Source: Raillietiella orientalis (Eukaryota). From it: 64,000 bases of DNA. The stretch lies in the NCBI GenBank assembly GCA_036172245.1, contig JAYWIR010000001.1:1178001-1242000 (forward strand), read 5' to 3'. Shown here one piece after another: positions 2,508-31,995 of the stretch. The first letter of the stretch is position 1. Each line of letters opens with the position of its first letter. The notes under the pieces are model-generated. The model had not been told where the DNA came from. It made no database searches and saw nothing but the letters and a program-made list of their open reading frames with translations. The translations under genes and the position numbers were made by a program.

Positions 2508-2758
2508 AGCGAAAACGAGAGCACCGACTGCTTACCTTACCTGACCGCCATCCGACCACGCAGGAAAATCATCTACCCGTTGGAGAAGCTGGGCGAAAAC
2601 GTTCCGAACTCGAACACGCTCAGGGATGACTCGCCGTTCTGCTTGCTTTACTGCAACAAAAGGAGCCTCGTGTCAGGGAAGGTGAACGTCAACAAGAAGA
2701 TTCTCATCGTCGGCTACAACGAGGTGTCGCTAGGATTACTGGAGACTCTCATATTCAG
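2508..2758 (+). CDS. CFAP61: CFAP61-like, first exon visible in window (internal exon)
   Basis: ttccag acceptor, AG|gtgag donor. Encodes ...LTAIRPRRKIIYPLEKLGENVP...NKRSLVSGKVNVNKKILIVGYNEVSLGLLETLIF, resembling remembered vertebrate CFAP61 (VPVRPRRQIVYPLEKLG...KITVNAKIIVVGASSVGISFLETLVF). Confidence 0.9.
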
Positions 2759-2817
2759 GTGAGGCAATTATCTCTGGCTGCCGGGAGCACCCTGCCCCCC
2801 CAAAATCCTGCGCGCAG

Positions 2818-3003
2818 CAGCTGTTTCAATTTCAACGGCGTCACCTTGGTCGAGCCCAACGGGCTGCCTGGAGACCTGGAAGACGACGATTTGAGACCAG
2901 TTATGCTCCGGCAGGCCTCCCCTCACGACGCTTCCTCGCTGCAAAGCCTGTGCCTGGATTTCTGGATCAGCGTCGTCCACGCGAACCTCACTCGGATTTC
3001 GAG
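2818..3003 (+). CDS. CFAP61: CFAP61-like exon
   Basis: Follows a 59-nt GT-AG intron; tandem CAGCAG acceptor gives start 2818 or 2821; phase 2 on both sides. FNGVTLVEPNGLPG...LCLDFWISVVHANLTRISR matches FNNLTLISTHGLPG...SLCSWVNVVVGRMTGIDR. Confidence 0.88.
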
Positions 3004-3473
3004 GTAGGGCTCCTGAGGCTGGGACACACAAAGACACATAAAGAGATTCCTGATGGACAGGAAGCCTCGCGGAACACAGCAAAGGGAATTTCTTAAAAGA
3101 AAGCAGCAGCCTACGGATGAACCGTTTTCTTTGTTTTGTTGGGGGAAGGTGGCCCTCTCAAGATTCAAGAGGGGGTTCGGGAAAGAACTGTTGAGAATGT
3201 TTCAATTGCATGGATGCGTCCACTCGTCAAGAGCCACAGGTGCACCACATACAACACGTCGCTGCTGCGCCTAGGGAGAACCCCTCGATGGTACTCGAGC
3301 ACGCAAGAGTCCAGGGAATTTCCCTTCGTCAGGGAATCTCCGTGGAGTCCCGAATTTCATTCAATCAGTGCGACAGCACATGAAAAAAAAAAAAAAAGCA
3401 GAGGGGTGCACACAAACTTTGTCGACTCTTTTTCGGCAGCAACCTTAACACACGGAACTGTTGCTACTCCTGC

Positions 3474-4219
3474 TACGAGGGGCATTTCAAAAGTAAAAGC
3501 CGATCGGATAGAAAGAAAGAACAAATAAGAGAAACAAATACGTACATACTCATGTCATTTTTCCACGTAGTCGCCATTTTTTTCTAAATACTGTTGATAC
3601 CGTGGAAGAAGCCTTTTGAAACCGTCTGCATGAAATTCTGCCTCCTGGGAGTTCAGCCAGTTCAGCAGCACCGCAGTTTTCCACTCCTCCCTTTCCCCCT
3701 CGCGTCGTCGAGCCACTTCTTGAGGTGCAGGAAGACGTGGTAGTCACTGGGCGCGAGGTCAGGACTGTAAGACCAAAAAGTTCCCATTTGAATTTCGGAA
3801 TTGTCTGGAATGTGCAAACAGCATGCGTTGCCAAGGCGCGCGTTGTCGTGAAGGAGAACAATTCCTCATCTCAGCATTCCATATGTCGTCGGTTCTGAAT
3901 GGCACGCCGCAGTTTCACAGAAGGCTTGCGAAGTAATGGTTGTTCCAGGCTCCATAAAGTCCACCAAAAGCACACCTTTCGGATCCCACACACTGCTGTC
4001 CTCACATTCCAGACAGTTGAGAAATTCAAATGGGAATGTCCACAACAGTGTTTCAAAAAGCTTCCTCCACGGTATCCAAAGTGTTTGGAAAAAAATGGTG
4101 ACTACGTGGAAAAGTGACATGGGGATGTACGTGTTTAGAGCCACGAATACATTTTTCCCCCCTCTTATTTGCTCTCTGTTTCTATCCGATCGGCCATTAC
4201 TTTTGAGAGGCGCCTGGTA
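3474..4219. mobile_element. Non-autonomous Tc1/mariner derivative in a CFAP61 intron
   Basis: TA at both ends. Imperfect TIRs (CGAGGGGCATTTCAAAAGTAAAAGCCGATCGGATAGAAA versus the reverse complement of the right end). Transposase remnants on the minus strand (WDPKGVLLVDFMEPGTTITS, KLRRAIQNRR, IVLLHDNAR) and the mariner C-terminus KCLEKNGDYVEK*. Confidence 0.88.
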
Positions 4220-4614
4220 TTTTGCGTGGCCAACGTGCGCTAGCGGAAAGTCGACCTGCCAAGCTCCGCGCGCGGGAGTTTCAAAAAACGCCTCATAGAC
4301 GGCTTCCGAATGTCGCAACGGATTTTCCGGTTCCCGCGCCGAGCAGGCGCCGAAAGACTGCAGCCAGAGTGGCTCTATGGTTGCAACCATAAAGCCGGTT
4401 TCTCGTCTGCCACGTCGCATTCGACGATCCCGCTTTCGAGAAAGGAAAAGGAAAAAAAGTGGCCGATTGAAAGCGCAGTACCTATGCGGGTTTCAGCGAA
4501 TGCATAGAAAGTGTGGCAGTGCCAGAGACGGTGGCAACAGGACTCCCTCGCTCCTCGGCTGTTACTGTACGACGGGATTCCCTAGAGTCCTTTCGATAAA
4601 ACGCCGAATCTGGA

Positions 4615-4800
4615 GAAAAACACTTGCATTCCAGCCACAGTCGTTAACCACAGCTTGGGAGGAAGTGAAGAAGGAATACGTGTACATAGTACAGTGTACA
4701 TAAATGATGTATCATTCGATACGGGATCCGAAGATGACGAGAGACCGATTTCCGAGGTCTCGTCATCCATTCGTGAGGGGGGAGAAGCGAAAGGGCAACC
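4615..4800 (+). repeat. Dispersed repeat module A, copy 1 (copy 2 at about 9943-10125)
   Basis: Shares TACGTGTACATAGTACAGTGTACAT...GTATCATTCG and long flanks with 9943-10125, same orientation. Confidence 0.8.
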
Positions 4801-6149
4801 GTGAGCATGGGGTGCATCAAAGATTTGTTCTGGAGGTGGTGATATTCTTCTACCCGTCGTATCCAAACGTCGGCCTCGCCTTGCCCTTTCGTCTTTGCTC
4901 GTCGTCTTTGGAGCGAGTTGAGGCGATCGCCTCCCAACTGCTCGCAAGAGTCTGAAGGAAGTGGGGGCGCGTCCCGGTTTCCTCCCGACTCGCGAAAGCC
5001 CCAATCGCAGGGGTTTTCTTCGCCGACTGAACAGGAAAAGAGTGCAAGGGTTAAAAAGGGGAAGACTTCACTTCCAACCGCTCTTTCGCCAAAGTTCCCG
5101 GCTTTTCGTTCCTGGCTGGACGCTGCCCCCCTTCCCCCGTGAGATGGTTCTGACAAAGCGTCGACTCTATGAACTGATTCGGATGCACGAAGAAGAAAAA
5201 GAAAAAATCTCACATGTCGATCTCAACTGCTCCGGGTGGACCACCGCACATCATGAGATTCCAATGGACGCACGTGATGGTGTCGTCTCCAGTGCACGCG
5301 CATGCACACTCTTCCCCCCTCTCACCACGCTCAGGTCTTGCCGCGAAGCGGACTGCTGCGGTGATCGCTTGAGCGGAACCTCGAACTGCGTGCCGCCAGC
5401 TCGAAAGCGCCCCCTCACACGCGGGAGATGCCCGCTGGTGACCTCTCTTCGCATTCCCGAGAACCGATCCCGCCACAGCGGAACAAAAAGGAGCGTGCAA
5501 GGGGAGGGCTGGCCGCCGAGCCGCTTCCCGTGGGAGGAGGAATCCCCCCCTCCCTCTTGCTCCGCGAACTCACCAAAGATCATCATCTTTTGATCCCTGA
5601 CGCAGACCGCGCGGGCGTGTGCTGTTCGGTTCTCTTTCAAGCCGGGCGGCTTCCGCTGACTCCACGGAAGGACCAGATTCTCGGCCGTGGGGGCTGCCGC
5701 AGAAAACGAACGGGTTCCAGGAGTTGCATTCGTTCCCGCTTGCTCCTCCGTACCAAACTCGCACTCCATCTCTTCCGTCGTGGCGTCGTCTTCAATGGTC
5801 GATGCATGTTGCGACAGCTTCGCGTCCGCCTCTGATGTCAGATCTGCGCAGGCTTCCCTCCCTATTCGAACTACCACATCACCCCTCGCCACCGGAAGCG
5901 AGCGCGGGACGTTCCCCTGCCTCGGTTTCCAGTCGCGACGTGGTCCGCCCATCCCGTTCCCGGCTCTCACGAGCCCGCGCGTTCCAAACTGCGACCTGTT
6001 GCTGGGAAGGGAAGAACCGAAAACTCCCAAGGCCACTCGCACCGATGCATCCCGGTTCGGTTCTCCCAGATGAGGTGAGCTGGGTCGACCAGGAAGCACT
6101 CTGTCTTCCCTCCCCTTAGAAGCTGAAACCTGCTCTCTTCTCCCCTTAG

Positions 6150-6256
6150 GAGCGAGCGGTGCGTCGTCCTGAATGGGAATTCGTGCCTTCCTTACGACGA
6201 CCTCGTGCTCTGCTGCGGCCTCCATTACGAGCCGCCGGCCTTGGAAGGGAAGAAGA
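6150..6256 (+). CDS. CFAP61: CFAP61-like exon (not shown in the ORF track)
   Basis: ccccttag acceptor (phase 2), a|gtaaaa donor (phase 1). RSERCVVLNGNSCLPYDDLVLCCGLHYEPP matches KHVVLSTDEIVPYDHLILCTGQQYQVP, the YDxLxxxxG motif of FAD oxidoreductase folds. Confidence 0.88.
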
Positions 6257-6303
6257 GTAAAATCGGTCGTCGGTCCGCATGACGCGCCCCGTTTCCTTTT
6301 CAG

Positions 6304-6405
6304 GATCGGAAGAAGGAAGTCCATTCAACGTGTTCGTCGTCAACAACGACTACGAAGCCGCAAGAGCCCTGTACTGCATAGAACACTACGTGGTCCAGAA
6401 GACAA
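6304..6405 (+). CDS. CFAP61: CFAP61-like exon
   Basis: After a 47-nt intron ending ttttcag; phase 1/1. SPFNVFVVNNDYEAARALYCIEH resembles VPCNHFTLNEEEDCFKALIWIRN. Confidence 0.82.
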
Positions 6406-6806
6406 GTGCGTGCGTCGCATCTGTCAGCTCTCCAGGGGGGGCGCTGTTTCGAATTCCAAGATCACAGACTCCCTTCCCCTTCCCAAGGCTCCCAACCGAC
6501 CGCCTGGTCTTGACCGCTCATCACGCCGTCATCCTGCCTTTTTTCTTTTTTTCGACGCTGGGCAGGTGACCTGTCCTGCGGGAGCGGCGACTCGCGATTT
6601 ACGTGTGGGCGGACGTCCAGTATGACGCGCTCGCGGGTCCGCTTTGCTCTTATCCCGCGCTTCTCTTGATACTATGGGCTTTCCTTCCTGCCTCCGGCCG
6701 AGCTGACCTTTCGCGAACACCCGAATCACCAACCCGAGGTCTCGCGTTGCCGCCCGGCGCGGGAGACTGAAATCCGCCTCCTCTTCTTCTTCTTCTTGTC
6801 CTGCAG

Positions 6807-6973
6807 TCGTGTTCCCGTCCGAGGACATTGTTGTGTACGGAGAGACGTTGGATGCGTACTGCTGCGTCTCTGCGCTCCTGAAGCTGGGGGTGCATCCCGC
6901 CAACATAATTCTGGTGCAGCCGTCCCTGAAGGATGAAAGGCAGGCCTCGCTGTACGACGAGATGGCAGAGCCG
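6807..6973 (+). CDS. CFAP61: CFAP61-like exon (3' boundary uncertain: 6973 GT donor or 6985 GC donor)
   Basis: Polypyrimidine tract plus ctgcag acceptor. DIVVYGETLDAYCCVSALLKLGVHPANIILVQP matches [33 protein letters not shown]. Confidence 0.85.
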
Positions 6974-7086
6974 GTGGTTCCAGAGGCAAGAATCCAAGTC
7001 CCCCACCCGCTCTCCCCACACAACCGACTTCTCTTCCTCCTCCCGAGGAAAGGAGAGGGGGGAACCGTCGGATCGTTCCTTTGCAG

Positions 7087-7507
7087 GTGGAAGAGCTGCT
7101 GTCAAACGTGCTGGAGTCCCTTTCCATCAGGAGATACTACGGTTTCCGCATATCCAAATACTTGTACCAGCACTACCTGGGGAGCGACGAGGAGGAGGAC
7201 ATTTTCCTGGAGGTCGACGCCATGACCGAAGTGGAGCAGCAGCTTCAGTCGATGCAGGCGTCCGTCCGGAGGGACATTCTTCACAGGCACGCCTCCTCCG
7301 CGTGGCTGAAGACGCCGTCCGCAATGACCACCACCCTCAGAAAAAGTCTCGCGAACGTCTCGCCTGTCCCGGAGCTGCAAGACGACGAGAGGCCCTTGAG
7401 GTTCCTGCGCTGCGCGTACTTCGTGTCCCGCTACAAGCCGATCTACCTCAACTGCTGCGCCCTCTTCATCTACGAGAGCAGGACTCTCAAGAAGGGATTC
7501 TTGAAAG
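7087..7507 (+). CDS. CFAP61: CFAP61-like exon with a large in-frame insertion
   Basis: ttgcag acceptor (phase 0), g|gtgagt donor (phase 1). Both ends align to CFAP61 (VEELLSNVL...; KPIYLNCCALFIYESR...), the middle does not. GC3-rich codons throughout. Confidence 0.83.
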
Positions 7508-8629
7508 GTGAGTCGTTGAGTCTGTGCTTTTGAGGGGGCCGCCGCCGCCGATGCTGCTGCTGGCCGACCCGAGCCGCGGGGAGCGGCGCCCTCCCGCCTC
7601 TTCCATCCCGTGGCTTAAGATTCTGCACCTATCCCTTTCTTTGCTTCTCCTCTCCCTTTCCCGCGCTCCTGACTCCGTGCTTTCCTGGGTGATGATCCCT
7701 GGCGGCATCCGAAGGTGGTGCGCGCGCAGAGCCCTGAAGAGCGAGCGCTGGCAACGGGGTAGAAGGGTGGTCGTCGCCGATCTAAGGTCAGGGCTGCGTG
7801 CGGCGTCGCAAGGCGAAAGGTTGCGGTCATCTGCTGGTCACCCTCCTCGAATGCTGCTGGACCAGGGTGGGGGTTGGGGCAATTCGTCACCGCTCGGAGC
7901 CGCACATACAGCCAGCGAACCTTCAGCAGCTAAAAGCGTCCTTCACCGTGACAAAGGACGTGTGAGCAAAATATCCTTCCGATAATCCACGTCGGCGCTC
8001 AGCAGCTCCGGAGATCGACAGAGTACCAGATCGGCAACCCGCAAAAGACAAAGGAAACAGAAAAAATCTATCTTGGGAAGAAGGATGTGGTGGCAATTTT
8101 TTTCTTCTTTTTTTCTTTTTTCACGTCGTGAATCGGTGGCTTTCCTGATCCCCGTTTATCCTTCCCGGCTCCGTGCCGAACATGCTCGTGATCCACGAGG
8201 AGGACTTTTGTGTGTTCCCTCGTCCGTGACACGCGGTGTGAGGGAGGGGGAAAGTTGCGCGCGCATGCGCGTCCCATGTACCTGAAACACGGACTTTTTG
8301 ACGGGGACTCCCGAAGACCTTGATGTGTTGTTATCGATGTACCGTGCGGCATGCAGAACGTATTTCATGCCTAATCAATATCGAAGTTTCGAGAAGAGGG
8401 CGTGTGGCATTGCTACCTCCACTGCCGCCGCTCGCCCGCGCCGCCGACGGCATCCAGCGACCCCACACGCTTGAACTTCGTTCTTCGAGGGCATGTGGTC
8501 TGGAGTATCCGCCTCGTGCGTGGCTGCTGCGTTCAAGGTGCAGGCAGCTCTCTTCTTTCTTTCCTCTCGGCACGCCTGAGCTTTTGCCCCCCCCCCCCCT
8601 TTGCCCTGCCGGGAGGCAATTTAGAATTG

Positions 8630-8830
8630 TGGAACCGTCGCGTTCCGGAGATTCGCGGGAAGGTTCCACCCTTTCTAGCCCGTGCTTGTCGGCGAGGACC
8701 GATGCTTCAGCGGGGGTGGAGGGAGGTGGACGGTCGTTGTGGTCCACGCTCGTATCAACCCGAGTGGAATGTGAAAAGAGCGGCAAAGCTTTCGACCCCC
8801 CGACGGAGGGGACAGAGTCACCAGATCAGG
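8630..8830 (-). repeat. Repeat module B, inverted relative to about 10165-10385
   Basis: AGCCCGTGCTTGTCGGC...CGATGCTTCAGCGGGG...AGTGGAA...CGGCAAAG is the reverse complement of sequence in 10165-10385. Confidence 0.8.
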
Positions 8831-9942
8831 CAAAGTGTGGTGCCTCCAGGCAACTTGAATACTCCGTTTGGAGGAGCCTTCCGACAGTGTTCGGATCCAT
8901 TCCTGGAGAGTTTTTACGTCGATCTAGTGGATGCATCTGAGGAAGAGACGACCACCTGCGGTCAAGGCAAGGACCAGCCCTTCCCTCGATGCAGAGATGG
9001 CAAGGAAGGCAGCGTCATCCCCTTGCTGCAGGCGGCGGTGTCTTCAGAGCAGGGGGGACGCTGTGCAGAAAGCACTCGGTCAGCCCCATTCTAGGATCAG
9101 TGGCCAGCTCTGGGAAGGGATCCGAGGGAGGAGCCCCTAGGCTGCCGCCGACACGTCGCGAGAACTGCCATTGCTGCAATCTTCGAGTCTCACGGCGGAC
9201 AAAACCCCCTTTTTTTTGTATTTTGGGACGGAAAAGTGGACTGCGAACGGAGGAAGGGAGGAGGGAGGGCACATTGCAGTGGTGCACTCCCGCAGGCGAT
9301 CCCCAGTCGGAAGCCTGGGGAACTTGGATGCGCAAGTCCAGTCCATCCGCATGCTGCCGGCTTTGGCCCGAAGGCGGCGGGAATATTTCGCTTCAAGCGC
9401 TTGCGGCCATGTTTCCTGGTCGATGGAAGGATGCAAGCGTCTCTTGTGCGGAGGGGTTCGCCGGCCCTTAGGACGAACGTGCCGAAGGAGACCACGTGTG
9501 CTGGAACCGTCGCCGGAAAGGTTGAAGGGACCTCACCCTCTTTGATCTGACGAACCTTCGGGGTTTCCTTCCGGTGGCTGCGTGAAGCATCAGGGAGTCG
9601 TCGCATCTGGTCTGCTCCCGTCTTGGCCGCCCTCGTTACCGTAGATGGCTCGTTACCACAGTCGTCACTCGGACTGCCCCTGAGGCATCAAGTTCTGGAA
9701 CCTTGGACACCTGTGTTCTCCAGCCAACGGGTCAGAGGAGCCTCTCTGAGCCGGTGGCTGCTGAATCCCTGAAGATCGGGGGGGTAGAAAGCGGCTCTGC
9801 TTCTTTCCACGTCGTTCCAGCCAGCGCCAGTGCAGTCCGATAGCCCCAGGATTCTTCCTCGGTCGCCGATGAGGTCCCCCATTCCGACGTCTCCGTGCGG
9901 GGAACGGGCTGAGACGGGGGTCAGCACTGAATGCAAGTGTTG

Positions 9943-10385
9943 GAAAGCACCTGCATTCAGGCGATAATCATAGCCACAGCTTGAGAGGAAGAGAAGAAGG
10001 GATACGTGTACATAGTACAGTGTACATGAATGGTGTATCATTCGGTACGAGAACCGAAAATGACGAGAACCTGATTTTCGATGTCTCGTCGGCCGTTCGT
10101 GAGGGAGAGAAGCGAAAGGACGACAGTGCGTTAGCCTTCGACCTCTCTTCCGATCCGAAGGGTGAGCCTGACATGTTGGTGGCTTTGTCCTCCGTCGAGG
10201 TTGCAAACTTTGCCGTTCTTTCCACGTTCCACTGGGGTCGATATGGGCGTCGGCCACGGTGACTGGAAATCGTCTACCCCCCAACCCCGCTGAAGCATCG
10301 TTTCTAGCCGACAAGCACGGGCTGGAGGGGGGGGGGGGAGAGGGAAGCTTTCCTCGAATCTCGGGAATGCGATGTTGGAAAGAGT
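9943..10385 (+). mobile_element. Unclassified element copy carrying modules A and B
   Basis: 5' part matches 4615-4800 directly; 3' part matches 8630-8830 inverted. No coding remnant recognised. Confidence 0.6.
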
Positions 10386-11081
10386 TGCATGCACCTCGCC
10401 GTCCTGGGAGGATTCCCGCAAACGGGCGCCTGGAAGACACGTGGCCGAGCTGCACAGCACGTCACGCAATGGGCGCTCCTTTCGTATTCCGCCGTCTACA
10501 TCTCTCTCTAGCCGACGGTCTGTGGCGTCGCGGCGAGGCGAGCAAACTGTCGGTCCTCCTGGGCAACTCTACGGCTTATCATGATGAAGATTAATGGCAT
10601 GCGACGGGCTTCCAATCACGACGCTGACTTACCCTTAATCAAGAAAACCAGGAACGATGCTTCGGGAGTCCCAGAACATGGACGCAAGTAGTCGGGATGG
10701 GCATCTACCAAAGGCGCAGGACCAGAAACAGTCAAGTTCCCGTAGGTTCCCGTTTCTTCACCCACGACGGACTGTCTGAACACTTTCAGATACTCCAGTT
10801 CTATTGGTTATTCGCGCTTCAGCTCAGTGGCTTGCTTTCTCTTGCAGCGTTGCGAGCAAGCGAAAATAAAGAAAAAACATGGCGGCGCGAAAGCAGCTCC
10901 GTGGCTACGAGGAACATTACACGAGGCACGGCATATGTGTGTGTGTCTTCTATTTCTCTCTCTTTTTCTGGAGAACTCATAAAGATACGCGCTTCGTTAA
11001 GGTACACGACCAATAAAGTACCTTGCACTGTACAAATCCCTCCCGAGAGTCCGCGCTTGACTCCTTGTCTTCCTTGTTCAG

Positions 11082-11254
11082 CGTTCGAAGAGGCATCCCT
11101 CGTCTGCGAAGGCGGGTATCTGATCATCAACAGGGACTTGCAGACAAATGATCCACGTATCTACGCAGCTGGAGAGCACACGAAATACTCACGCTTAATC
11201 AATCTTCGTTTCTGCGATCACATCTGTAGCAATCAGCGCGCCGTCGGGATGCTG
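11082..11254 (+). CDS. CFAP61: CFAP61-like exon
   Basis: ttgttcag acceptor (phase 1), ctg|gtaacg donor. AFEEASLVCEGGYLIINRDLQTNDPRIYAAGEHTKYS matches [36 protein letters not shown] (TxxxxIYAxG flavoprotein motif). Confidence 0.9.
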
Positions 11255-11307
11255 GTAACGCCGCGCTTTCGTTTTCCACAACGCGCCGCCTGTCTGCTCC
11301 TCTGAAG

Positions 11308-11586
11308 CTGGGGAGGCGACTGGGCACGGCGAGCACCAGCTGCTGGCCAGGAGGACCACCCGACGCGGACGAAGAGGCCTCAACGCTCGCCAAGCCCATC
11401 ACGACCTACGCGACGCTGCCCGGAGGCTGGCATTACTTCGGCGTCAGGAGCCCCGGCGTTTGCAACAACAGCTCGGGGCTGTTCAACCTAAAGACGGGTT
11501 CCGTCGCCAGCCAATCCAAGAGCTACTTCCGCGTCTCCTTGGACCGCAATGACACCGTCTGCTGCCTCATCTGCCTGAGAACCGAG
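11308..11586 (+). CDS. CFAP61: CFAP61-like exon
   Basis: After a 53-nt intron ending ctgaag; phase 0/0. TLPGGWHYFGVRSP...TGSVASQSKSYFRVSLDRNDTVCCLICL matches ILPGSYHYLHIAKP...TGSAKNGTYFRIHINKYKMVETITCL. Confidence 0.87.
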
Positions 11587-11640
11587 GTGACTCCCGCTCT
11601 GCTGCAGCGCGCCCACCCACCCGCGGACTCATCTCCACAG

Positions 11641-11847
11641 CCCATCCGGACAGCAGGGAACCTGACGCGCCTGCACGGTCTCCACGAAAGACACCTCAGC
11701 AACCTCCGGGAGAGATACGACGATGGATCCATACAAGACTTTTACGAATTCTTCTCTGAGCCCTGGTGCATCGCCCTGTACCACGACGGTTACGCCGAGC
11801 TGAGGAAGCAGCTGAGGAGGATCATGACGACGGATGCTAAAGGGAAG
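11641..11847 (+). CDS. CFAP61: CFAP61-like exon
   Basis: After a 54-nt intron. NLTRLHGLHERHLSNLRERYDDGSIQDFYEFFSEPWCIALYHDGYAELRKQLRRIM matches NYIRLFGQHEQLLNNLCARYDENLITDLYSYFTEPWCLALFHDRFIDLRKELRQIL, the most diagnostic block. Confidence 0.93.
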
Positions 11848-11901
11848 GTAAAAGCGGGAACTTGGTGCTTCCCGCCCTCCCCCCAACGCAGGTGCTTTCA
11901 G

Positions 11902-11949
11902 AATACCGCCTTGTATCAGAGGATTCTCGACATGGCCGATTCGCTGCAG
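11902..11949 (+). CDS. CFAP61: CFAP61-like short exon
   Basis: tttcag acceptor, cag|gtaggg donor, phase 0/0; encodes NTALYQRILDMADSLQ. Supported mainly by splice signals and frame continuity. Confidence 0.7.
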
Positions 11950-12899
11950 GTAGGGACGTGCAGCGAGCGACTGCGAAGCCTTCCAGGGTGCTACGAGTCC
12001 GTGGACGCCTCGCGAGGCGGTTGCGATGCAGCGAGCGACGTCCGTCCGCTGGACTGCTGCGAATCCGTGAACGCCGCGCGAGGTGGTCGCTGGCACGTCG
12101 TCTTCCTTTCGGGTGCACGGATGGGGTGGGAACACGTGGGCTGCTTGGAGGAGGCGAAGCCCTTCCGTACTGCACTTTGGATGCAGGCGGCTCCGCCACC
12201 TCATCTGCTGCCGCATCCGTCCGTCGCTTCTAATCGGCGCCTTGGACCATCTGCAAGTGGCGTGCCTGGTCCTCGTCTGGCTGCCGGTTTGAGTTCTCTC
12301 CTGAGCAGAGGTTTTCGCTTTGTCTTCCACTGACCTCCCGACGCTGAGGAGGATGCGGTGTCCAAGAACGCGGGACTTTGTCGGTCTTTGCGGGGAACCG
12401 TAGGAGTCCATGCGGTTTGCGAGGTGGTGGCTATACTCTCGGATTCCCGGACAGGTTCTTTGCCAGCCGCGGTCGTCTTCCGTCGCCGCCGCCGCCGCCG
12501 CCGCAGCAGCAGCAGCATTGCATGTCTCACCAGCACATGGGGGGGTCACCACCAGGGTCCCCGTCGTGAGCTGCAGCCCTCGCAGCTTTGTCCGGCTCCC
12601 TGAAGTGATAGCATCATTCGCCAGCAGCCACTCCAAAAGGGAGAGAGGGTCTGAGACTTACTCACTCTACCCCCGGACTCGTCAAAGCGACGTCTCAACG
12701 AGGCTTCTCGGCGCTCGTTCTTCCTTCGCGCTTCTGGAACTTCCGTTCCCTAGCCGGATCCTCAGCGTGCCCGCCCTTCCGTTCTTCCCTGCTTTTCCGA
12801 AATTCGTTTCCCGCGCGCCCACTCTGAAAGGAACAGATCCACGAACGTCCAGCGTCCGCGCTTCCCCGGCACGCAACATCGGCTTCCTTTCCGCGTCGG

Positions 12900-13620
12900 G
12901 AGCCGGGACCCTCAGGCGTGGAACCTGCTGTGCGCGCGCGCTTCGATCCAGCCCGGTTCCTGGTAGATCTGGATGCTGCGCGCCGGAGAATCGCGCTTCT
13001 CGCTTGCACTGCACCCATGGAAGTGTGTACAGCCCCTCTTCGACGGACTCGCGCGGAGGTGATCCCTTTCTTAGCTTCACCAATGCGGGCAGGGGCTCCC
13101 CAGGCGGCGGGCGGCCGTCTCTTCCCCTATCCTCGTCGGTCGGCGGAGCTCGAAGACTCTCTTTTTTTCTTCTCCCCCCTCCCCCCCTCCGCGAAAACGG
13201 AGTCACAGTTCGCTTCCATCCCTCAGGGTGCACGCACGCGGCCTCTGACATCTAGCGTCACTCCCCCCCCCCCCACCTGCTCTCTTCCCCGTTGTCTCCA
13301 CCCCGTCGTCGCCTTGCAGGCCGGCATTGCTTCGGAGCCGCGTGGACACGCCGGTAGAGAGCAGACTCGTGCGGAGGAAATGGGAGAGGAGCTGGAGTTT
13401 TCGCTCCGGGTGGTGGTTTTCTTTGGTACTCCTGAGGAAGCCCTCAGGAGATCTCCGAGCCGAAACTTCCCGCCGCCGCGGGTGTTTCCTTTCTCCTTCC
13501 GCAGGCCCGAGCGGTCCCCACGAGAGAGAGAGCTTTTTGTTGTCTCCTGCAACCCGCCGCGCGCACGTTTCGATCCGGCTCGGCTCCTCCCGAGAGGCCG
13601 GGATGCTGCGCGCCGCCGTT
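12900..13620 (+). repeat. Degenerate local direct duplication (about 12920-12990 and 13550-13620)
   Basis: GCGCGC...TTCGATCC(A/G)GC(C/T)CGG(T/C)TCCT...GGATGCTGCGCGCCG occurs twice about 630 bp apart. Confidence 0.65.
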
Positions 13621-15806
13621 TCCGTTCGGACGGGAGACGGAACCGCCGTTGCCGACTCCGTCGTCGCTTCGCTTTGTCTCTCCCCACCCCCGTCGAGAGC
13701 CCGCGGGGGGGCGTGCCATCGCGCGGATTCCTTCTTCCCCCTCCCCCTCCCGGCTTTCCCGGCTGGTTTGCCCCGCGGAAACACGGAAAGCGCGCGCGCG
13801 GCTGTCCTCCGCGCGGCAGCTTCTTCCTTCCGCCGCGGGGCGGCGCTCCTCCCTCCCTTCCCTCGGAAGCCCCACTCGCCCTCAAAACCCGGATGTCTGG
13901 AATTCGCAAGCAGGAGGATGCCGGAATTCATAAGGAAGTGAATCCCGGGATGTCCTCTCCCGTGGCGACCTCCTGGGAAAGGCTGCCCCACCTCCGCCGC
14001 GCAGCTCGGCGGTCGGGGTAGCGCCCGGCCCGTCCACCGCCAGATGACGCATGATCCACGCCTCCCGGGGGAGGAAGACGTTTCCGGCCCGCGGATGGGG
14101 ACCGCTCGTACTCTCGCGACCTTCCCACTCCAGCCGGTTGCTTCCCTTCGTGCCATGTGAGGTGACGGCGCAAAGCATCCGACGAGGCCGACTTGCCCGG
14201 GGGCGCTTCAGTTTCTCCTCCTCCGGACCCCTCCGCCCAGCGGATCTCTGCGCGGCTTCGGTTGTTCTCCCCCCCCCCCAAACAGCCGGACCGCCCCCTT
14301 GAGATTTTGCTGCAGGCGAAGTAGGAGGGCGGTGGGGCCGTCGTGACAACTCTTGGTTCTGCTGCGTCCCTCGCCGCGGCTGGAAGCACCACGGAAACCT
14401 CAGCCTCCTTCGGGACCAACTTCTCGCTGCCTCGCCTTCCCAGAGGTCGCTGGACGCGCTTGTCCTCGCAACAACAATGAGATATTATTGGCTTCCGTAA
14501 ATATCCAGGAGGCATCCTCGCCGCGTCCGTGTGTAGTCCCGTGATCAGTCCACAAGCAGGCAGCGTCCTCGATGAGTTTCCAGCAGTACCGCAGCGCGCT
14601 GGACGCCGACGCGGAACTGCAGAGCGCAACCGTCGGGCAGCCGGGGGGCCAGTCGGAGAGGAGGGTCGCTTGTACGATCGGAGGAGGGGCTGAGTATTTT
14701 ATTCTTGCACCCCCATTCTGGCCATGGACCCCGAGCTCGACTTCCTTTGCGGACGTCCGCTGTGCCCTCAGGGCGAAGACTTCGGAAGATTCGCTTCAGG
14801 GAGGTCGTCTGCCTTTCCCCCCACTCCCTCGTCCGCCAGAGCGATCTCCCCGGAAGATCGGGGCATTTCCACGGAAACGGGGCGAGCGACTCTCCTCGTC
14901 ATCTCCGACCCCTTCGAGCCACCCGCCACGGGAGTTCGCGACGCTCTGTGCAACCGACCCCCCCCCCCTCCCGGCTACCTGGCCTCACAAGAGTCCAATA
15001 GAGAACCATCTCGTCTCATTCTCCGTCCGCGCGACCATCCTCGGTCAAATCCGGGTCTTTGGATCCGCGGAAAGCCTGCGGATCCGTCCGGCAGCAAGCA
15101 GCCGCTTAAGAATGGAAGAGGGAAGCGCTGTGGGTGCACGCCGTCCGCGAGGACCCGGCGTTTCCCGGCGTGCCAGGCGCGGATTGCGACACGCCCGGGG
15201 TGACTCGCCGACCGGTGGTGGATTCCACCGCTGACAGGGGACCGTCCGTCCGCTGGCAAGTTTGCTTCACTTGGACTGACGTCATAGCTCGCGAGGACTT
15301 TTTGACGAATGCCGGAGGACACTGGGGCCGCTGCCCCCTCCGCTGCTTGCCAGTAGTCTGTCTCCTCTGGAAAGCGTGTCTTCACGCAGTGACTCTTGAG
15401 GGACGGCAGGATGCGTGCTCTTCGGGCCAATTTGCGATTGTGAGTCGGGTCGCTCCCAACTCACTTCAGGAGTCTTCCGCAGACAGCGGCGCTAGCTGCA
15501 AGGACCTTTCGTTCGCAAGCGTGCCTCGTATTGCTAAAGAAAGCAGCGCGCCGTTGTGCTGGGTTCCGGAGGTACCGCTGCTCGCGTGTAGATGGCGCGC
15601 TTTATCCCTTCCCCGCCTTCACATTTGCTCCCTCCTGGAATCGCACCCGTTCTCCCCGCCCGCCAACCGCTCCCCTCAAGGATGGATTTGCTGGCGGGCG
15701 GTTCGCATCTCCGCTGCGGGCCATATGAGCGCTGTCCTCGGCGCTGCGGAAGGAACGTGCGCGCCTGCACCCCACCGCGGCGCTGCTCACATGTCCTCTG
15801 TTGCAG

Positions 15807-15968
15807 TTGAGGAACGTCGGGGACGACCCCGAGCTGTGCAGGGAGCTGAAGGAAGTTTTCTTCGCGTCCACCCTGAGGGAGGAGGTCAAGGAAGGTGTAC
15901 TAGCCTTCCTGGAAGGTCACAGGGACCAGCTGACTGTCTACGCCACCCGACTGCAGCTGCCCCACTGA
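15807..15968 (+). CDS. CFAP61: CFAP61-like terminal exon with stop (not shown in the ORF track)
   Basis: gttgcag acceptor, phase 0. LRNVGDDPELCRELKEVFFASTLREEVKEGVLAFLEGHRDQLTVYATRLQLPH* resembles the CFAP61 end (YLKRVFEESIYKTLVERSTLDYLHYNRYHLPMYA). The 11 exons sum to 2103 nt, 701 codons including TGA. Confidence 0.85.
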   Translation: MRNVGDDPELCRELKEVFFASTLREEVKEGVLAFLEGHRDQLTVYATRLQLPH

Positions 15969-16489
15969 CTCTCTCCGCCCATCCCGCGACTGGTCTGGAG
16001 GCTCCCGAAAGAAATATACCCCTGGGGTCGAGGAGCTGCGTCTTGGGGCGCGCCCGCGAGGTTGGCACAGGCCCCTGAAGAAAGAGAGCGCAAGGGTGGC
16101 TCTCCGGGTGCCTCGTGTCGCCACTTCGGGGTGGCTTCCTGCTCGCCAAGGAGAGGCTTGGGATGACCCTGCGTCCAGAGGTCAAAAGTTCTTCTCGGAA
16201 AGCTCCCGGAAGGCGTCGTCCCGGGAGACAAGCAGGGTTTCTCCTGATCCAAGAGCGCAGAGCGCTCGCCGGTGGCGGCCGGGTCAGTGGGTCGAGGGGC
16301 CGGTCCGCGCCGCCGCCGCCGCCGCCGCCGCCGCCCGGGGCCATGACGGACGAGGAGCTCTTCTCCCAGGAGGGAGGCGACGAAGGCGCCGCCGCCCGCC
16401 GGTCGGGGAATTCGGCGCGCTTCTCTCGAGCGCGGCCCGGGGTCGTCGCCGGACGCGACGTTAGCAGTTTGCCCCCAGGCATCTTTCCG

Positions 16490-16570
16490 TGACGTAACGC
16501 AGAGCAAACACGGAGCGATCTCTGCTGATCTGTTGATTGGCATCCCCGATAAGAGTTATCTCTTGTTTGC
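16490..16570 (+). promoter_or_regulatory. Candidate promoter motif cluster upstream of NK2.2 exon 1a
   Basis: Within 80 bp: TGACGTAA (16490), GCAAACA (16504) and TGTTTGC (16564; forkhead-type), ATTGG (16536), GATAAG (16548) and TTATCT (16556; GATA pair). Lies about 130 bp before ATG 16700. Confidence 0.4.
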
Positions 16571-16699
16571 GCCCATCCGAGGATGAGGAGAAAAAGCGGC
16601 CCGGCGAGCGCCGCCGGTCGATCGGCGCCTCTCGCACAGGGAGGTGGCGCGCGTTCCCTCGGGCCCGCCCCTGGTGACACGCAGTGACTCCGGCCCGCC

Positions 16700-16809
16700 A
16701 TGAGCACGTACGAGACCCCCGAGTACGCGTACCTGACCCAGGACGACGCGCTCCAGCCCCTCTGGCAGCAGTTTTCGTCCCTGTCGTCCCTGGAAGAGGA
16801 GTACCTCAG
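16700..16809 (+). CDS. Candidate distal alternative first coding exon (1a) of NK2.2/vnd
   Basis: cccgccATG context, strong GC3 bias, MSTYETPEYAYLTQDDALQPLWQQFSSLSSLEEEYLR, CAG|gtcagt donor in phase 2, matching the phase-2 acceptor at 20383. No homology support. Confidence 0.55.
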
Positions 16810-17504
16810 GTCAGTAGTCCTCCCCCTTTCGCGCGGCCACCCGCTCCCACCCCCAAGCACTCCCCCTCCCCTTGGAGGAAAGTGGGAGGGAGCAGGAAAA
16901 AAGGAAGAGTCGCGCGCGCGCGCGCAAGATCGGACCGAACGCGCAGGCGCAGGTGGCAGCGGGAGGCTGGTGGCCGCGCGCGATTCGGCGCCGAGGCTTC
17001 CCCTCCTCTCCCGGACAGGAAGGTCGCGCTCTCGGCCCCGCTCGGAGGCGCTTCGCCGCTACCCGCTGGCATCTCCCCCGGCAGCCCTTCCCGATCCGGC
17101 TGGGAGACGCTTCAGCGGTCAGTGACGATGAGTCGGCCAGGCGATCCGCGGTGCCGACACGGACGGCAGGACGGAGGCCGTCTGGGGCCTTCCGAAAGAG
17201 AGGCCGCACACGAGCCGCCTTCGACCGCGCGCGAGCGAGCGATGCAGCCGTTCCACCCGTGATGTCCCAGGCTCGCGGCAGGAGAGGTCCCCTCCAGCCG
17301 TGAGGGATTGTCTCCGGCACGTAAGCCCCGCCATCCCGACCGGGACGGTGTCGCCCGGGAATGCTTCAGGAGCGGCGACATGATCTCCCACGAGGGCGAG
17401 GTCGAACCCGCCCTGCCTCGTGTCGTCAGCTGACGGCCCCGGAGTCGCTGCTCCAGAAGGAGAAGGGGAGTAGGCGGGCGCCGTCCTTGGACGTCCGAGG
17501 AGGA

Positions 17505-17655
17505 ATGGGGAGCGGGGAGAGAGAACTGATCAGGGAACGAAAAAGGAGGAAGGGAAGAAAAAGGAAAGAGGAGGAAGGGAGAAGGAGGGAGAAAGGGAGA
17601 AAAAAGGAAGGAAAAGAAGGAGGAAAAAGGGAAGAGAGGGAGGAGGAGGAAAGAA
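17505..17655. repeat. GA-rich homopurine tract
   Basis: About 150 bp almost entirely G/A on the + strand. Confidence 0.85.
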
Positions 17656-20064
17656 TCCCAGTCTCCCGGTTCCCGATATGTTCTCCGGGAGTGACGACAG
17701 GCACGCCCGGATTCCTGGCAGCTCCGAAAGCCCCCCAGCGGGCGTGTCGAGCGCCATCGCCGCAGCCAAGGCAGTGCAGTGAACTGCGGGAGGGAGGCCG
17801 GGGGCGCGCCCTGTCGGCGGAGGGTCGCCCACGTGACCCGCGATGCCGACGTCACACTGCTTTCTCCGAGCACCGCTGCTCGCGCGTGTGGCGGGTATTC
17901 CCTCGGCCGTCCGGGAGCGGCCCCGGGCGGAGGGTGGGAGTGGCGTGGCCAGAAGGGATCTCTTTCCAGGCGGCCCGTCTATCCGGGGTGAGTCCTTTGC
18001 GGGCGACGGACACGCGCGGCGCGGGGGAGAGACGGAAAGGAAAGCGAGGGCAAAGCTCCAGGTCGATGGAGCTCGGGTTTCCAGGAAACTCTTCGCCTCC
18101 GCCCTCTCCCTGCTGCCTCTCGGACTCCCGCACTCGACCGATGGGAGCGACCACGTGTCCGCCCCCTTTCTCCCCCCCCCGTCATCCCCGGCAGCGTGCG
18201 CTTCCCTGAGGGTTGCCTCCGCACCTCCGGATGCAGCGTCCTCGCGAGGGGTCACTGTGCTGAGCAGGGGAAGGAGGAGCGCATGGGGGTAGTGGGAAGG
18301 ACACTCTCTCGCCTGGGGCGCCGCGTTGATCGGCCGCAATGCTGCCGCCGCCGCCGCCGTGCGTGGCCCGTGAGACAGCTTGACGCCAGCGCCTGGGGCG
18401 CGGGACGGAAGGGTCGGCGAGCGGGGCACAGCTTGGGGCGGAGAACGCTCGACTGAGCGAGCGGGGGTGGGGGAGGGGGGGTTCCGCGGGCTGGGGCGTC
18501 CGTCCGTCCCCACGCTGTCTCGGGCGGGCGGACCTCCACTGACGATACGCCGGAGGGTGGGTGGTCCGCGCGCAGCGGGAAGGGGCGAAAGGATTGGGGC
18601 CGGGTAAATTGGGCGCGCCGAAATCCGGCGCTCCTCGAGAGATTAGAGGGGGGGGGGGGGGGCGTTGCAGAAAACCTGGTGGAGCGCTTCTCCGTCCCAC
18701 CCTTCCGCGCACCCTCTCGGACGACCGCTCAACGATGGGGGGGTCGCCTACCTCGTCCACTCCTTTCCTGCAGGAAGAGAGCGAGCGACGGGGCACCAGC
18801 AGTCTGCTGACCTCCTCTTTCCCTCCAGGGTCTCCGGGCGTCCAAGGCGGTCGGCGGGTAAAGGGCGGAGTCGTTCGCCCCAGGCGGCGGCGGCGGCGCC
18901 ACGCCGTCTGCAGCCTTCTCCCGTCTGCCGGCGGGGCTACCCTGGGGGCGGGGGCGGAAAGCGGCATATTCGAGGTCCCTGCGGGGAAACCTCCCGAGGG
19001 GACCGGGCCGATCCCATCAGGTCACTTGCTCGGGGTCAGCCCTCAAGCAGCGCTGCGTGCGAGCGCATAGGAAAAGGAGAGGATGAAGGGGGTGAGGGAC
19101 ACCGGCCCGTGACCGCCACCTCGCCTGCAGCAGCATCCCCCGCGGGCACCTCCTCGCTCGCGGGCCGGAGCAGTGCGCTAATGCCGTGCCCCCATTGTGC
19201 AGTCACGCACTTCCTGTTTACAGGGGTCGCCGTCGCCCCTAATCCCCCTTTCCCGAGGAGCGAACCTCCCTTGTAGGGGTGGGGGTGAGACTGGAGGGAG
19301 GGCCGCCTGGAGCGGGCGGGGAGCGGGAGAAAGGGGGAAGAAGGACCCGCTGGGATGAGGTGGGGTCGGGAAACCGATCCCAACTCCTGAGGCTCCCCGT
19401 TCTCCCCCCGACCCTTCCTCCCTCCCTTCACCCGGGGCGCACCGAGGTGTAGCCCGAGGAGAGGGAGGGATGGGAGCAAGGAGGAGGACTTACTCTTCCG
19501 TTCCTGCTCCGAGTCCCCCCCTCCTCCCTCCCTGTCAGCGGTCGCTGCCGGGAGGAACCACCGCCTCCTCTTCTGCGCGTGGCGGCAGCAGCAGCGAGGG
19601 AGGCGCTTCTTTTGTCCGTGAGCAGCTATGCGAACCCATTGGCTGCAGAGCGCCGGCGTCCGGAGCGGCGATTGGAGGAGCTGCCTGCGGACGCCCCACC
19701 CCCTTCTCCGTGCGTCCGGCCCCTCGAGCGGCGGTGGCGGTGCTCTCTCCGTCGCTCTCGCTTCCGCGCTCGCGGCGGGGAATCCAAGCAGAGCGGGGAA
19801 GCGAAGGGAGAGAGAAAGGGGGAGAGGAAGGGAGGGAGAGGCATGCGCCTCCCCCCTCCTCCTCCTCCTCGCCTGGCCGGCGGGGCGAGAGCCGGTCCAT
19901 TCCGCGCGTGACTCTCGAGCGAGGCGCGCCGTCCGAGAACGGGAGATGCGCGTCGTCGCTGTGTGCGGTCGGCGGCAGCAGCAGCAGCAGCAGACACTCC
20001 GAACGGCGGCTCCCGGTGGTGGAGGCTGCGGCACCAGCAGCGCGGCGGCGGCTGTCCGGTCGCC

Positions 20065-20153
20065 ATGGAAGCGCCCTTCTCCCTCCTGGAGAGGCTGCGA
20101 TACCTCAATCTGTGCCTGGCGCTGTACCCGCACCTCTACTCTAGGCTGTTCAG
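20065..20153 (+). CDS. Candidate proximal alternative first coding exon (1b) of NK2.2/vnd
   Basis: gccATGg Kozak context, GC3-rich, MEAPFSLLERLRYLNLCLALYPHLYSRLFR, CAG|gtagaa donor in phase 2, matching acceptor 20383. No homology support. Confidence 0.5.
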
Positions 20154-20382
20154 GTAGAAGAAAAAAACAAAAAGTGGGGGTGGAGGGGGGAGGGAGGGAG
20201 GGGGGCATGAGCGCGCCCTAGGGACGGCGAGATGGAGGGGAGGGGGGTGGCATCCGTCCATTCGCTTGGGTAGGGAGTAAGAAGCGCGTGTACTCCTCCA
20301 CCACCATCCTTACCCCTTTGAACCCGCGGTTGCCAGGGAAATTCTCGCGCCTGCTCATGGCCCCTGCGGCGGCTGCTTGCAG

Positions 20383-20537
20383 GTCCTTCGACATGAAGAT
20401 GAACCTGGGCGGGGGCGTGAAGACGAGCTTCAACGTACGGGACATCCTGGACCTGCCCGACAGCGCGGCAGCGGTCCAGGAAGACGCGGCGGCCGTCGCC
20501 AAGCAACAGCAGCAGCAGCAGCAGCACGCCGCGGCTG
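20383..20537 (+). CDS. NKX2-2: NK2.2/vnd exon with TN (eh1) motif
   Basis: ttgcag acceptor, in-frame ATG at 20393. KTSFNVRDILDLP matches the NK2.2-type TN motif (KTGFSVKDILDLP). Poly-Q run; g|gtgagg donor, phase 1. Confidence 0.88.
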
Positions 20538-20649
20538 GTGAGGCGCGCCCCGCTCTGGCGCTTCATAGCGGCTCCTGACCGCGGCCCCTCCCCCTTCCTT
20601 CTTTCCCTCTTCGCGGTGGCTGTCGCCCGGGGTGCGTGCTCCCATGCAG

Positions 20650-20835
20650 ACCCCCTGGAGATCGACAAGATGGCCGACTTCTCCGACCTGCGGTACATCA
20701 GTCCCGCCCTCTTCGCAGCCCACGACGAGGACACCGCCCACAAGCATCATCATCATCATCAGCATCATCATCAGCAGCAGCAGCAGTTCCTCCGCTCCTG
20801 GAGCGCGGAGGTGGACGTCGCACCCTCCTACCAAG
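20650..20835 (+). CDS. NKX2-2: NK2.2/vnd exon (His/Gln-rich)
   Basis: atgcag acceptor and g|gtgagg donor, phase 1/1, open frame DPLEIDKMADFSDLRYISP...HHHHHQHHHQQQQQFLRSW. Confidence 0.78.
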
Positions 20836-20906
20836 GTGAGGGCACCCGTCCCCACCCCAGAAATCCCCACGCGGCGGTGCGCATACGAGCCCCCCTCCTC
20901 TTCCAG

Positions 20907-21355
20907 TGCTGTCGTCGCTCCCCGTAAGCTTCCCCCTGCAGCTCAGCCCGGACACTACCTGCGCAACCCCGAACAGGGTGACCCCGGCGTCGCCCCCGGC
21001 ATCCCCCGCCAGCCGGGTGCCTCCGCGCCCCGCCGCCCCATCCTCATCCGGAGGCAGCACCCCGCCGGACAGCACTCGGGTGCTGGACAAGGAGGTCGAC
21101 GGCGGCGGCGGGGGCGCGGCCGGGGAGGACGACGAAGACGCGGAGGAAGGGGCAGACGAGGGGGAGGAAGGGGGGACGGTTCGCCCTCCATCCTTGGCCC
21201 CTCCCCCCGGCGGCGGCGCCAAGAAGCGGAAGTCGCGCGTCCTCTTCTCCAAGATGCAGACCTTCGAGCTGGAGAAGCGATTCCGACAGCAGCGCTACCT
21301 GTCCGCCCCCGAACGGGAGCATCTGGCCAGCGTCATCCAGCTGACCCCCACCCAG
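20907..21355 (+). CDS. NKX2-2: NK2.2/vnd exon with homeodomain residues 1-44
   Basis: ttccag acceptor, phase 1. Acidic tract, then [44 protein letters not shown]; cag|gtaact donor. Confidence 0.95.
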
Positions 21356-21407
21356 GTAACTCTCCGGGCGGCAGCGCCTCCATCACTTCCCCCCTCTCTG
21401 TCCACAG

Positions 21408-21995
21408 GTCAAGATCTGGTTCCAGAACCACCGGTACAAGACCAAGCGCGCCCAGCACGAGCGGGGTCACAAGCTAGACTTGGAGGGCGTGACCTCCCCG
21501 AGGCGCATATCCGTCCCCGTCCTCGTCAGGGACGGAAAGCCCTGCGCCGCCGCCACCGCCGCCGCAGGAGGACGCGTGGCGGCCGCTGCTGCCGGGCCGC
21601 CGCCAGGACGGGGCTGCGACCCCCACGGGGGCAGGGGCGGCGTAGCGTCCGCGGTGCATCACCCTGCCCACCCCCACCACCCCCATCATCACCCTCACCA
21701 CCCGCACCATCACCATCCCCACCCCTACGCCCTGCAGCACTCGGCGGCTGCGGCCGCGGCGGCCGCCGCCGTCCTCTCCTCCGCAGTGACAGCCGGCGGG
21801 GGCGCCCTGAACGTGCCCGACCTGGCGCCCCTCAGTGGCGGTGGCGGCGCCGGAGGCCCCGTCGTCGTCCCGCCGCCACCGCCTTCGGCCGCCTCCCTTG
21901 CCCCCACCTCCCTCGCCTACGCCGCTGCCGCCGTCAACCTGGCGTCCCTCCCCTCCTACAGCCACCCCCTCATCTCCCAGCAGCGGTGGTGGTAG
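21408..21995 (+). CDS. NKX2-2: NK2.2/vnd terminal exon: helix 3, NK2-specific domain, stop
   Basis: After a 52-nt intron between homeodomain codons 44 and 45. [16 protein letters not shown] (Tyr54), [17 protein letters not shown] (NK2-SD), His/Pro and poly-Ala tracts, ends QQRWW*. Confidence 0.96.
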
Positions 21996-22531
21996 CCCCC
22001 CCGCTCCCTCCCCCTTCTCCACCCCCCCATCTTCCCCCCACAAACAGACCGACAAACAGATCCCACCCCTTCTTTTTTTGTACGAAATACACTCTTCTGG
22101 AAGCCAGAAAAAATGAGGTCCTGCTCGCGCGCACCCCCCGCCCTTCTCCCCCTCTCCGTCACCGCGGCGGGGAGGGACCGGGGCGCGCGCGCATCGATCG
22201 TCGCCGAGCGACGTGGGAAGGGGGGAGGGAGACGGACGACCCCTCGAGCTCTGCCGGAGGCGGGCGACCCCCTCGCACGGGCACTCCGCTCGAAAAAAAC
22301 AGGTCGCCGACCGATGACCCGCCCCTGCCCTCAGGAGGGCTGCGCAAGCAGTGCCCCCCCCCCCCAAACTCCTCTTTCCCTGACCACTCCCGCTCGCCTC
22401 GGCGGCTCCACCGCAGCCGCCGCCACTACCGAGGTCACCCGTCCTTTCTATGACCACCCCAGCATTCCCAAAAGCGAGCTAGCAGCGCTGCTGCACACCC
22501 TCCGGCCACAGCGATTGCGGACAGCCCTGCT

Positions 22532-25184: not shown

Positions 25185-25297
25185 TCAGCTCCTCCTCCTC
25201 TTCCTCCTCTTCCTTCCTTTCCCCTCCTTCCCTTTCTCCTATTCCTCCCTTTCTTCCCCCTTCCCCCTCCCTTCCTTCCTTCCTTCTCTCCTCCTCT
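25185..25297. repeat. CT-rich homopyrimidine tract
   Basis: Near-pure C/T run. Confidence 0.85.
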
Positions 25298-31900: not shown

Positions 31901-31995
31901 GGGGGTGCGTGCTCCCCAGAAAACGTGGGTTCTAGGCCGCGAGCACGCCAGCCAGAAAACAGCTGCTGCCCAACGAGGGGATAGGAGGTCCAGGG

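Follow-up and report, generated by a model that had tools for sequence, protein, structure and literature searches.

The contact between CFAP61 and vnd/NK2.2 in Raillietiella orientalis is probably a derived adjacency within linkage group A1

The ancestral order reconstructed for the pharyngeal cluster runs xrn2, nkx2.1, nkx2.2, msx, cnga, pax1/9, slc25a21, mipol1, foxa, egln3 (PMC11175523). Links between NK2.1 and NK2.2 and between NK2.2 and Msxlx are known in protostomes (PMC7978419), and NK2.1 lies close to NK2.2 in a sea spider (PMC12220506). The human gene order is CFAP61, INSM1, RALGAPA2, KIZ, XRN2, NKX2-4, NKX2-2, PAX1, with five genes between CFAP61 and NKX2-2 (PMC11220097). Isl-Scaper, Otx-Ehbp1, Pax1/9-Slc25a21, and FoxA-Mipol1 are described as conserved ancestral microsyntenic pairs or genomic regulatory blocks (PMC3514665 and PMC4729200), and four marks of such a block have been listed by Irimia et al. 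(PMC3514665), among them a trans-dev gene beside a non-developmental bystander, conserved non-coding elements within the introns of the bystander, and enhancers located there that act on the promoter of the trans-dev gene. Here we analyze a locus of the arthropod Raillietiella orientalis at which CFAP61 directly adjoins vnd, the NK2.2 gene. The window, that is, the whole stretch of 64,000 bp analyzed, is C1:1,178,001-1,242,000 (contig JAYWIR010000001.1) of a contig-level assembly of 210 Mb in 491 contigs. We conclude that the contact is most likely a derived adjacency, brought about by shuffling inside linkage group A1.

The two genes lie head-to-tail on the same strand, the CFAP61 stop at 15968 being 732 bp from the distal candidate ATG of vnd and 4,415 bp from the TN exon, in agreement with the distances of about 730 bp and 4.4 kb given by an earlier, sequence-only reading of the locus. 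If the distal exon is used, the intergenic stretch of 731 bp (15969-16699, + strand) would have to accommodate the distal vnd promoter as well as the 3' end of CFAP61. The part of CFAP61 lying in the window is its 3' half (2508..15968, + strand), comprising the FAD/NAD-binding-like region and the dimerization domain, and its assignment draws on PDB, Pfam, profile, and tree evidence. The best-conserved exon (2508-2756) matched PDB chains named CFAP61 with E values of 2e-16 and 6e-16; three of the four matches listed were strong, the third being labeled CFAP20 but having the length of CFAP61. In a domain search, exons 11305-11583 and 11641-11847, which encode the dimerization domain, passed the cut-off of PF23150 (CFAP61_dimer), and the single match to PF16092 (CFAP61_N) in the whole genome was found 10.7 kb upstream of the window, at the gene start. 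A profile built from 15 full-length homologues was collinear with the locus over model positions 42-1155, corresponding to about -10,700 to 15,947. The weakest piece is the final coding exon (15807-15968; E value of 0.09), which is nevertheless collinear and in frame to the TGA at 15966-15968, with a GT donor and an AG acceptor; a search of one CFAP61 exon against longer proteins gave no match and was uninformative. CFAP61_N, the FAD/NAD-binding-like region, and the CFAP61 dimerization domain thus occur in order, and the best matches are to CFAP61, as expected of an orthologue. Since the profile maps in order, the PF16092 match is the sole one, and identity is about 30%, we consider the gene full length, single, and divergent. 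In a FastTree phylogeny, it grouped with CFAP61 of Limulus, Diploptera, and Periplaneta (support, 91) on a long branch. The length of this branch, 1.46 changes per site, points to fast evolution in this lineage. Together with the homeobox sequences, this phylogeny puts the genome among the arthropods.

The shared exons of vnd/NK2.2, supported by PDB matches, domains, a tree, and a splice check, lie on the + strand at 20383-20537 (TN domain), 20650-20835, 20907-21355, and 21408-21995 (homeodomain, NK2-specific domain, and terminal WW). The homeodomain itself (21221-21355 plus 21408-21452) has Drosophila vnd as its best PDB match, and the gene fell into the NK2.2/vnd clade with a Shimodaira-Hasegawa-like support of 96, whereas the NK2.1/scro of this genome fell outside it. 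The TN domain and the NK2-specific domain are visible in the sequence, and NK2.1/scro is a separate gene, as expected if the window gene is the NK2.2/vnd orthologue. Both orthologies proposed by the sequence-only reading were therefore borne out by PDB matches, domains, and trees, and the three CFAP61 introns that it singled out (3004-6149, 7508-11081, and 11950-15806) were found at these positions. Two first coding exons of vnd are predicted on the + strand, a distal one of 36 codons with a phase-2 donor (16700-16809) and a proximal one (20065-20153). Both splice in frame, with GT-AG throughout, giving a 495- or 488-residue protein that ends at 21995. They were two of four ATG-to-phase-2-donor candidates between 11,950 and 20,380, the other two overlapping a CFAP61 exon. 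Insect vnd proteins have two kinds of N terminus, one Y/D/E-rich and one P/W-rich, and the likeness of the two candidate exons to these N termini was not significant compared to 1,000 shuffles (p values of 0.15 for the distal exon and 0.26 for the proximal one). Having two alternative phase-2 first exons that join the TN exon could be an isoform pattern of long standing in pancrustaceans. The vnd homeodomain carries several substitutions relative to the arthropod consensus, with about 89 to 93% identity to its best matches, in line with fast evolution of the gene in this lineage.

The age of the linkage was read from the ortholog table published as S1 Data by Lin et al. (2024; PMC11175523), which covers five deuterostomes. 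The CFAP61 row (Bf01/Sp05/Po01 g18640/Pf14 TCONS_00009920/Sc01) was validated by the fact that amphioxus and urchin transcript numbers, derived separately from two CFAP61 protein accessions, share it. In all five deuterostomes, this row and the putative NK2.1, NK2.2, and FoxA rows (Po01 g19772, g19776, and g19786; Pf14 TCONS_00009628, 9627, and 9611) fall into a common linkage group, A1. Independently of this table, the Ptychodera flava CFAP61 protein is encoded on a sequence of 41,862,543 bp, the size of Scaffold_14, which is PFL14; PFL14 is the homologue of SPU5, the carrier of the pharyngeal cluster, and SPU5 represents A1 (PMC11175523). The linkage of CFAP61 and NK2.2 is thus old at the chromosome scale, both genes lying on an A1-derived chromosome.

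At the scale of neighboring genes, the picture was different. In the sea star Pisaster, CFAP61 (g18640) is 1,136 gene models away from NK2.2 on a chromosome with an observed range of 1,347 numbers, the cluster rows being confined to g19772-g19786. In the hemichordate P. flava, CFAP61 (TCONS 9920) is 293 same-strand transcripts from NK2.2, and the cluster rows occupy 9611-9628 and, on the opposite strand, 10941-10944. We take the g and TCONS numbers to follow position because the eight rows g19772-g19786 form two tight TCONS runs (9611-9628 and 10941-10944). Both genomes have a compact cluster, and yet CFAP61 is distant from it. In human, five genes intervene, and a fused macaque gene model runs from NKX2-2 to NKX2-4; from the human order and the direction of this model, CFAP61 lies 3' of NKX2-2 there, whereas it lies 5' of vnd in the present genome. 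In the order reconstructed for the ancestor, other genes hold both flanks of NK2.2, so that CFAP61 does not fit in beside it. A conserved ancestral microsyntenic pair should be adjacent or a few genes apart in several distant lineages, which was not found in sea star, hemichordate, and human, and a member of the pharyngeal cluster should lie inside or abut the xrn2...egln3 interval where the cluster is intact, which CFAP61 does not. The old linkage suggested by the sequence-only reading hence holds as macrosynteny, within A1, but not, in the gene orders read, as microsynteny. A full-text search found no paper in which CFAP61 (C20orf26) is connected with the invertebrate NK2 cluster, the supplements of Irimia 2012, Aase-Remedios 2023, and Lin 2024 (S6) lying outside it, and the CFAP61-NK2 pair did not occur in the supplement files searched of Simakov 2015 (two files) and Martin-Zamora 2023 (PMC9977687; two files). 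In the ambulacrarian rows around CFAP61, a further gene, Po01 g18643 (S1 Data rows 91 and 830), has an SPU transcript number consecutive to that of CFAP61 and an opposite-strand position match in P. flava. It looks like a conserved neighbor of CFAP61 in ambulacrarians. As a guess, this gene may be CRNKL1.

In this genome, XRN2 (+; C1:6.949-6.952 Mb) faces scro (-; 6.974 Mb) as a convergent pair (C1:6,949,287-6,974,363) located 5.77 Mb from vnd on the same contig. XRN2-NK2.1 is therefore the truly ancient pair that was kept here while NK2.2 has left. The other genes of interest are scattered, with RALGAPA on C31, a CRNKL1-like gene on C35, FoxA on C13, and Pax1/9 on C6. None of the human CFAP61-NKX2-2 neighbors that could be placed was near vnd (KIZ was not searched for, and separate contigs may share a chromosome), and a scan for the INSM/nerfin zinc finger with a short, degenerate motif gave no match. 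On the left side of XRN2, 120 kb of sequence carry RCC1-like, rhodanese-domain, E1 dehydrogenase, hnRNP Q, GPR158-like, and kinase genes. Left of XRN2, we also noticed an identical reading frame present in inverted orientation 30 kb apart (L152:705-1040 and L155:886-1221), with two E1-dehydrogenase-like pieces (L153) in between, which is either an inverted duplication of recent origin or a repeat in the assembly.

We propose that CFAP61 and vnd/NK2.2 go back to a single chromosome of the bilaterian ancestor, A1, and would have been retained on one chromosome arm in this lineage. Intrachromosomal rearrangement would then have parted vnd from its ancestral partners, XRN2-NK2.1 now being 5.8 Mb off along the contig, and through a breakpoint immediately 5' of the vnd promoter, the CFAP61 3' end would have come to lie there. 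The two genes would have kept independent roles, CFAP61 as a radial-spoke/calmodulin- and spoke-associated complex axonemal protein and vnd as a ventral neuroectoderm homeodomain factor, and the vnd enhancers would most likely reside in the gene's own first intron of 3.3 kb and in a 3' desert of about 83 kb. A rough null using assumed gene numbers gave a probability of ~2% per locus that a vnd flank is one of 5 to 15 human-neighborhood genes. A post-hoc scan of a few hundred developmental genes should thus turn up several cases of this kind in each genome.

Several observations weigh against a derived adjacency of two independent genes. Gene-number distance is a proxy for coordinates, and the NK2.1, NK2.2, and FoxA rows are putative assignments from accession numbers, backed by clustering alone. 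Human CFAP61 and NKX2-2 are only about 1 Mb apart. Pisaster and Ptychodera are both ambulacrarians, so that a single stem inversion could explain both large gaps, and gene order was read in sea star, hemichordate, and human, not in spiralians or other arthropods, nor in amphioxus, urchin, and Schizocardium, the identifiers of the last three not being positional. Finally, the last CFAP61 intron (11950-15806, + strand; 3,857 bp) has a guanine-plus-cytosine (GC) fraction of 0.64, continuous with the 0.68 to 0.69 of the vnd domain, whereas the rest of CFAP61 is at 0.50 to 0.57 and its 5' part near 0.50; no repeat was found in this intron by a screen covering the window and 0.72 Mb of the 210 Mb.

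The composition of the last intron bears on the possibility of a young, lineage-specific regulatory block, in which, after the rearrangement, vnd enhancers would have lain in or spread into that intron, the contact being constrained in this lineage only. Such a block is compatible with a derived adjacency, and we regard it as possible but doubtful. GC-rich and apparently repeat-free, the intron differs from the distal introns, which have the lower GC and carry repeats, and little room is left 5' of the distal vnd promoter; judged from sequence, 11950-15806 could be the only CFAP61 intron plausibly doubling as vnd 5' regulatory space. GC declines on both sides of vnd, so that closeness to the gene suffices to explain the value in the intron, and the small extent of the repeat screen limits what the lack of repeats can contribute. 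Moreover, Dorsal, Twist, Su(H), and NK2 motifs were not enriched in the last intron, and the sole silencer-like motif near the gene, a weak match to a Schnurri/Mad/Medea silencer motif (18895-18910, + strand), sits in vnd's own first intron; the window holds two matches to this motif versus 0.43 expected, and 6 of 100 shuffles reached two. The stretch of about 83 kb 3' of vnd in which no gene was detected, which starts in the window (21996..64000) and extends to the next detected gene, encoding a PP1 catalytic subunit, is more likely to be the vnd regulatory desert; the stretch was delimited by a composition-based gene scan, in which small exons could be missed. Within this GC-rich 3' flank, an AT-richer island at 24300-24750 with clustered TAAT/ATTA and TGACGT motifs was picked out by eye as a candidate enhancer. 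Farther along are two long inverted-repeat elements of the foldback type (42893-44065 and 44721-46137) with arms of 158 to 242 bp that are 91 to 95% complementary. More broadly, C1:1,028,001-1,392,000 is a compositional mosaic of housekeeping stretches (GC, 0.30 to 0.39; CpG observed/expected ratio, 0.3 to 0.6) and the vnd and scro domains (GC, 0.62 to 0.70; CpG ratio, about 0.9 to 1.0), which suggests gene-body methylation combined with GC-rich developmental domains.

We then considered that the bilaterian ancestor might have had a loose neighborhood in which CFAP61 was located a few genes from xrn2-nkx2.1-nkx2.2; vertebrates would have kept it, the ambulacrarian stem would have lost it, and a short inversion in the present lineage would have given direct contact before XRN2-scro left. 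The small number of genes between CFAP61 and NKX2-2 in human, five (PMC11220097), is consistent with this scenario, one ancient pair, XRN2-NK2.1, is indeed kept here, and two inversions from the human order yield CFAP61+ vnd+ ... XRN2+ scro-, as observed, although this agreement is a one-in-two coincidence. The large CFAP61-NK2.2 gaps in both ambulacrarians argue against it, as does the literature found, in which CFAP61 is not named with the cluster in invertebrates. The same scenario also predicts INSM, RALGAPA, or KIZ beside XRN2, where other genes occupy the 120 kb to the left and RALGAPA is on C31. We consider a loose neighborhood unlikely and leave it a small chance because both informative invertebrates are ambulacrarians. 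Its fuller version, in which CFAP61 was an outer member of an ancient xrn2-NK2 neighborhood, kept near NK2.2 in vertebrates and this arthropod and lost once on the ambulacrarian stem, and in which the last CFAP61 intron now serves as a 5' enhancer field of vnd, appears slightly less probable still.

An ancient regulatory block, with CFAP61 as a conserved bystander harboring NK2.2 enhancers in its introns and the pair held together by selection, is very improbable. The first mark of such a block, a trans-dev gene with a non-developmental bystander, is present in vnd and CFAP61, only 732 bp lie 5' of the distal exon, and CFAP61 has several introns of 2 to 4 kb in a genome where other introns are often 50 to 110 bp. 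Taken as a possible second mark, these large introns are spread along the whole gene and are partly repeat derived. The gaps between mapped CFAP61 exons measure about 4.0, 2.2, 0.9, 1.4, 3.2, 3.1, 3.6, and 3.9 kb (some may hide exons) and show no trend towards vnd, the farthest intron being among the largest. Two of the three introns highlighted by the sequence-only reading contain repeats: intron 3004-6149 carries a mariner-derived miniature inverted-repeat transposable element (3474-4219) with nested inverted repeats, a transposase remnant (PF01359, E value of 1.6e-4), and many genomic copies, and intron 7508-11081 has a 135-bp repeat in common with it as well as an inverted repeat. The bystander role proposed in that reading thus received no positive support, and the lack of adjacency in human, sea star, and hemichordate largely refutes an ancient block. 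In line with this, no CFAP61 match was found at any of 78 metagenome NK-homeobox loci, a weak result given that only about five NK2.2-like loci had at least 9 kb upstream. An assembly mis-join between CFAP61 and vnd is highly improbable, because the sequence over 12-22 kb contains neither an N nor a repeat and changes smoothly in GC, and both genes belong to A1, which a random mis-join would rarely respect.

Around the locus, the genes 5' of CFAP61 are a member of the Nop family, a CIR1-like gene, and RpL32. Downstream of vnd and on the same strand, Six1/2 and a second Six-class gene lie at C1:1.395 and 1.504 Mb, 195 and 304 kb away. Elsewhere in the genome, a single open frame of 2,055 residues (C15:1,407,177-1,409,693) has four homeodomain matches and is probably a ZFH-type gene.

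The locus illustrates how membership in one ancestral linkage group can yield seemingly convincing but probably independent adjacencies, CFAP61 being near NK2.2 in human and in an arthropod, yet far from it in two genomes with a compact cluster. It also adds CFAP61 to the A1 gene set observed in an arthropod and provides a genome in which XRN2-NK2.1 persists while NK2.2 has departed. Were the loose neighborhood true, the pharyngeal-cluster region would gain one gene, and an enhancer field open to testing would be at hand, but the findings speak against it.

One known system close to the locus is A1 macrosynteny (part of BFL1, SPU5, POC1, and PFL14; PMC11175523). CFAP61, NK2.1, NK2.2, and XRN2 are on one contig here, just as CFAP61, NK2.1, NK2.2, and FoxA share one chromosome in the five deuterostomes; unlike there, gene order is scrambled, genes without the 20p11 neighborhood occur on the contig as well, and FoxA and Pax1/9 lie on separate contigs of this contig-level assembly. 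With the pharyngeal cluster and its xrn2-nkx2.1-nkx2.2-msxlx block (PMC4729200, PMC7978419, and PMC11175523), the locus has in common that vnd is the NK2.2 member and that the convergent pair XRN2-NK2.1 is kept on its contig. It differs in that 5.8 Mb separate NK2.2 from NK2.1, the sea star and the hemichordate have CFAP61 a long way from the cluster, and the excerpts of these three papers do not mention CFAP61 as a member. The human 20p11 segment likewise has CFAP61 and NK2.2 in one region, but with five genes between them, CFAP61 3' of NKX2-2, and INSM1 as the direct neighbor of CFAP61 (PMC11220097). As in Isl-Scaper-type pairs, a transcription factor gene, vnd, adjoins a non-developmental gene with large introns, CFAP61; those pairs recur in many phyla with tested intronic enhancers, whereas the CFAP61-vnd adjacency comes from one genome.

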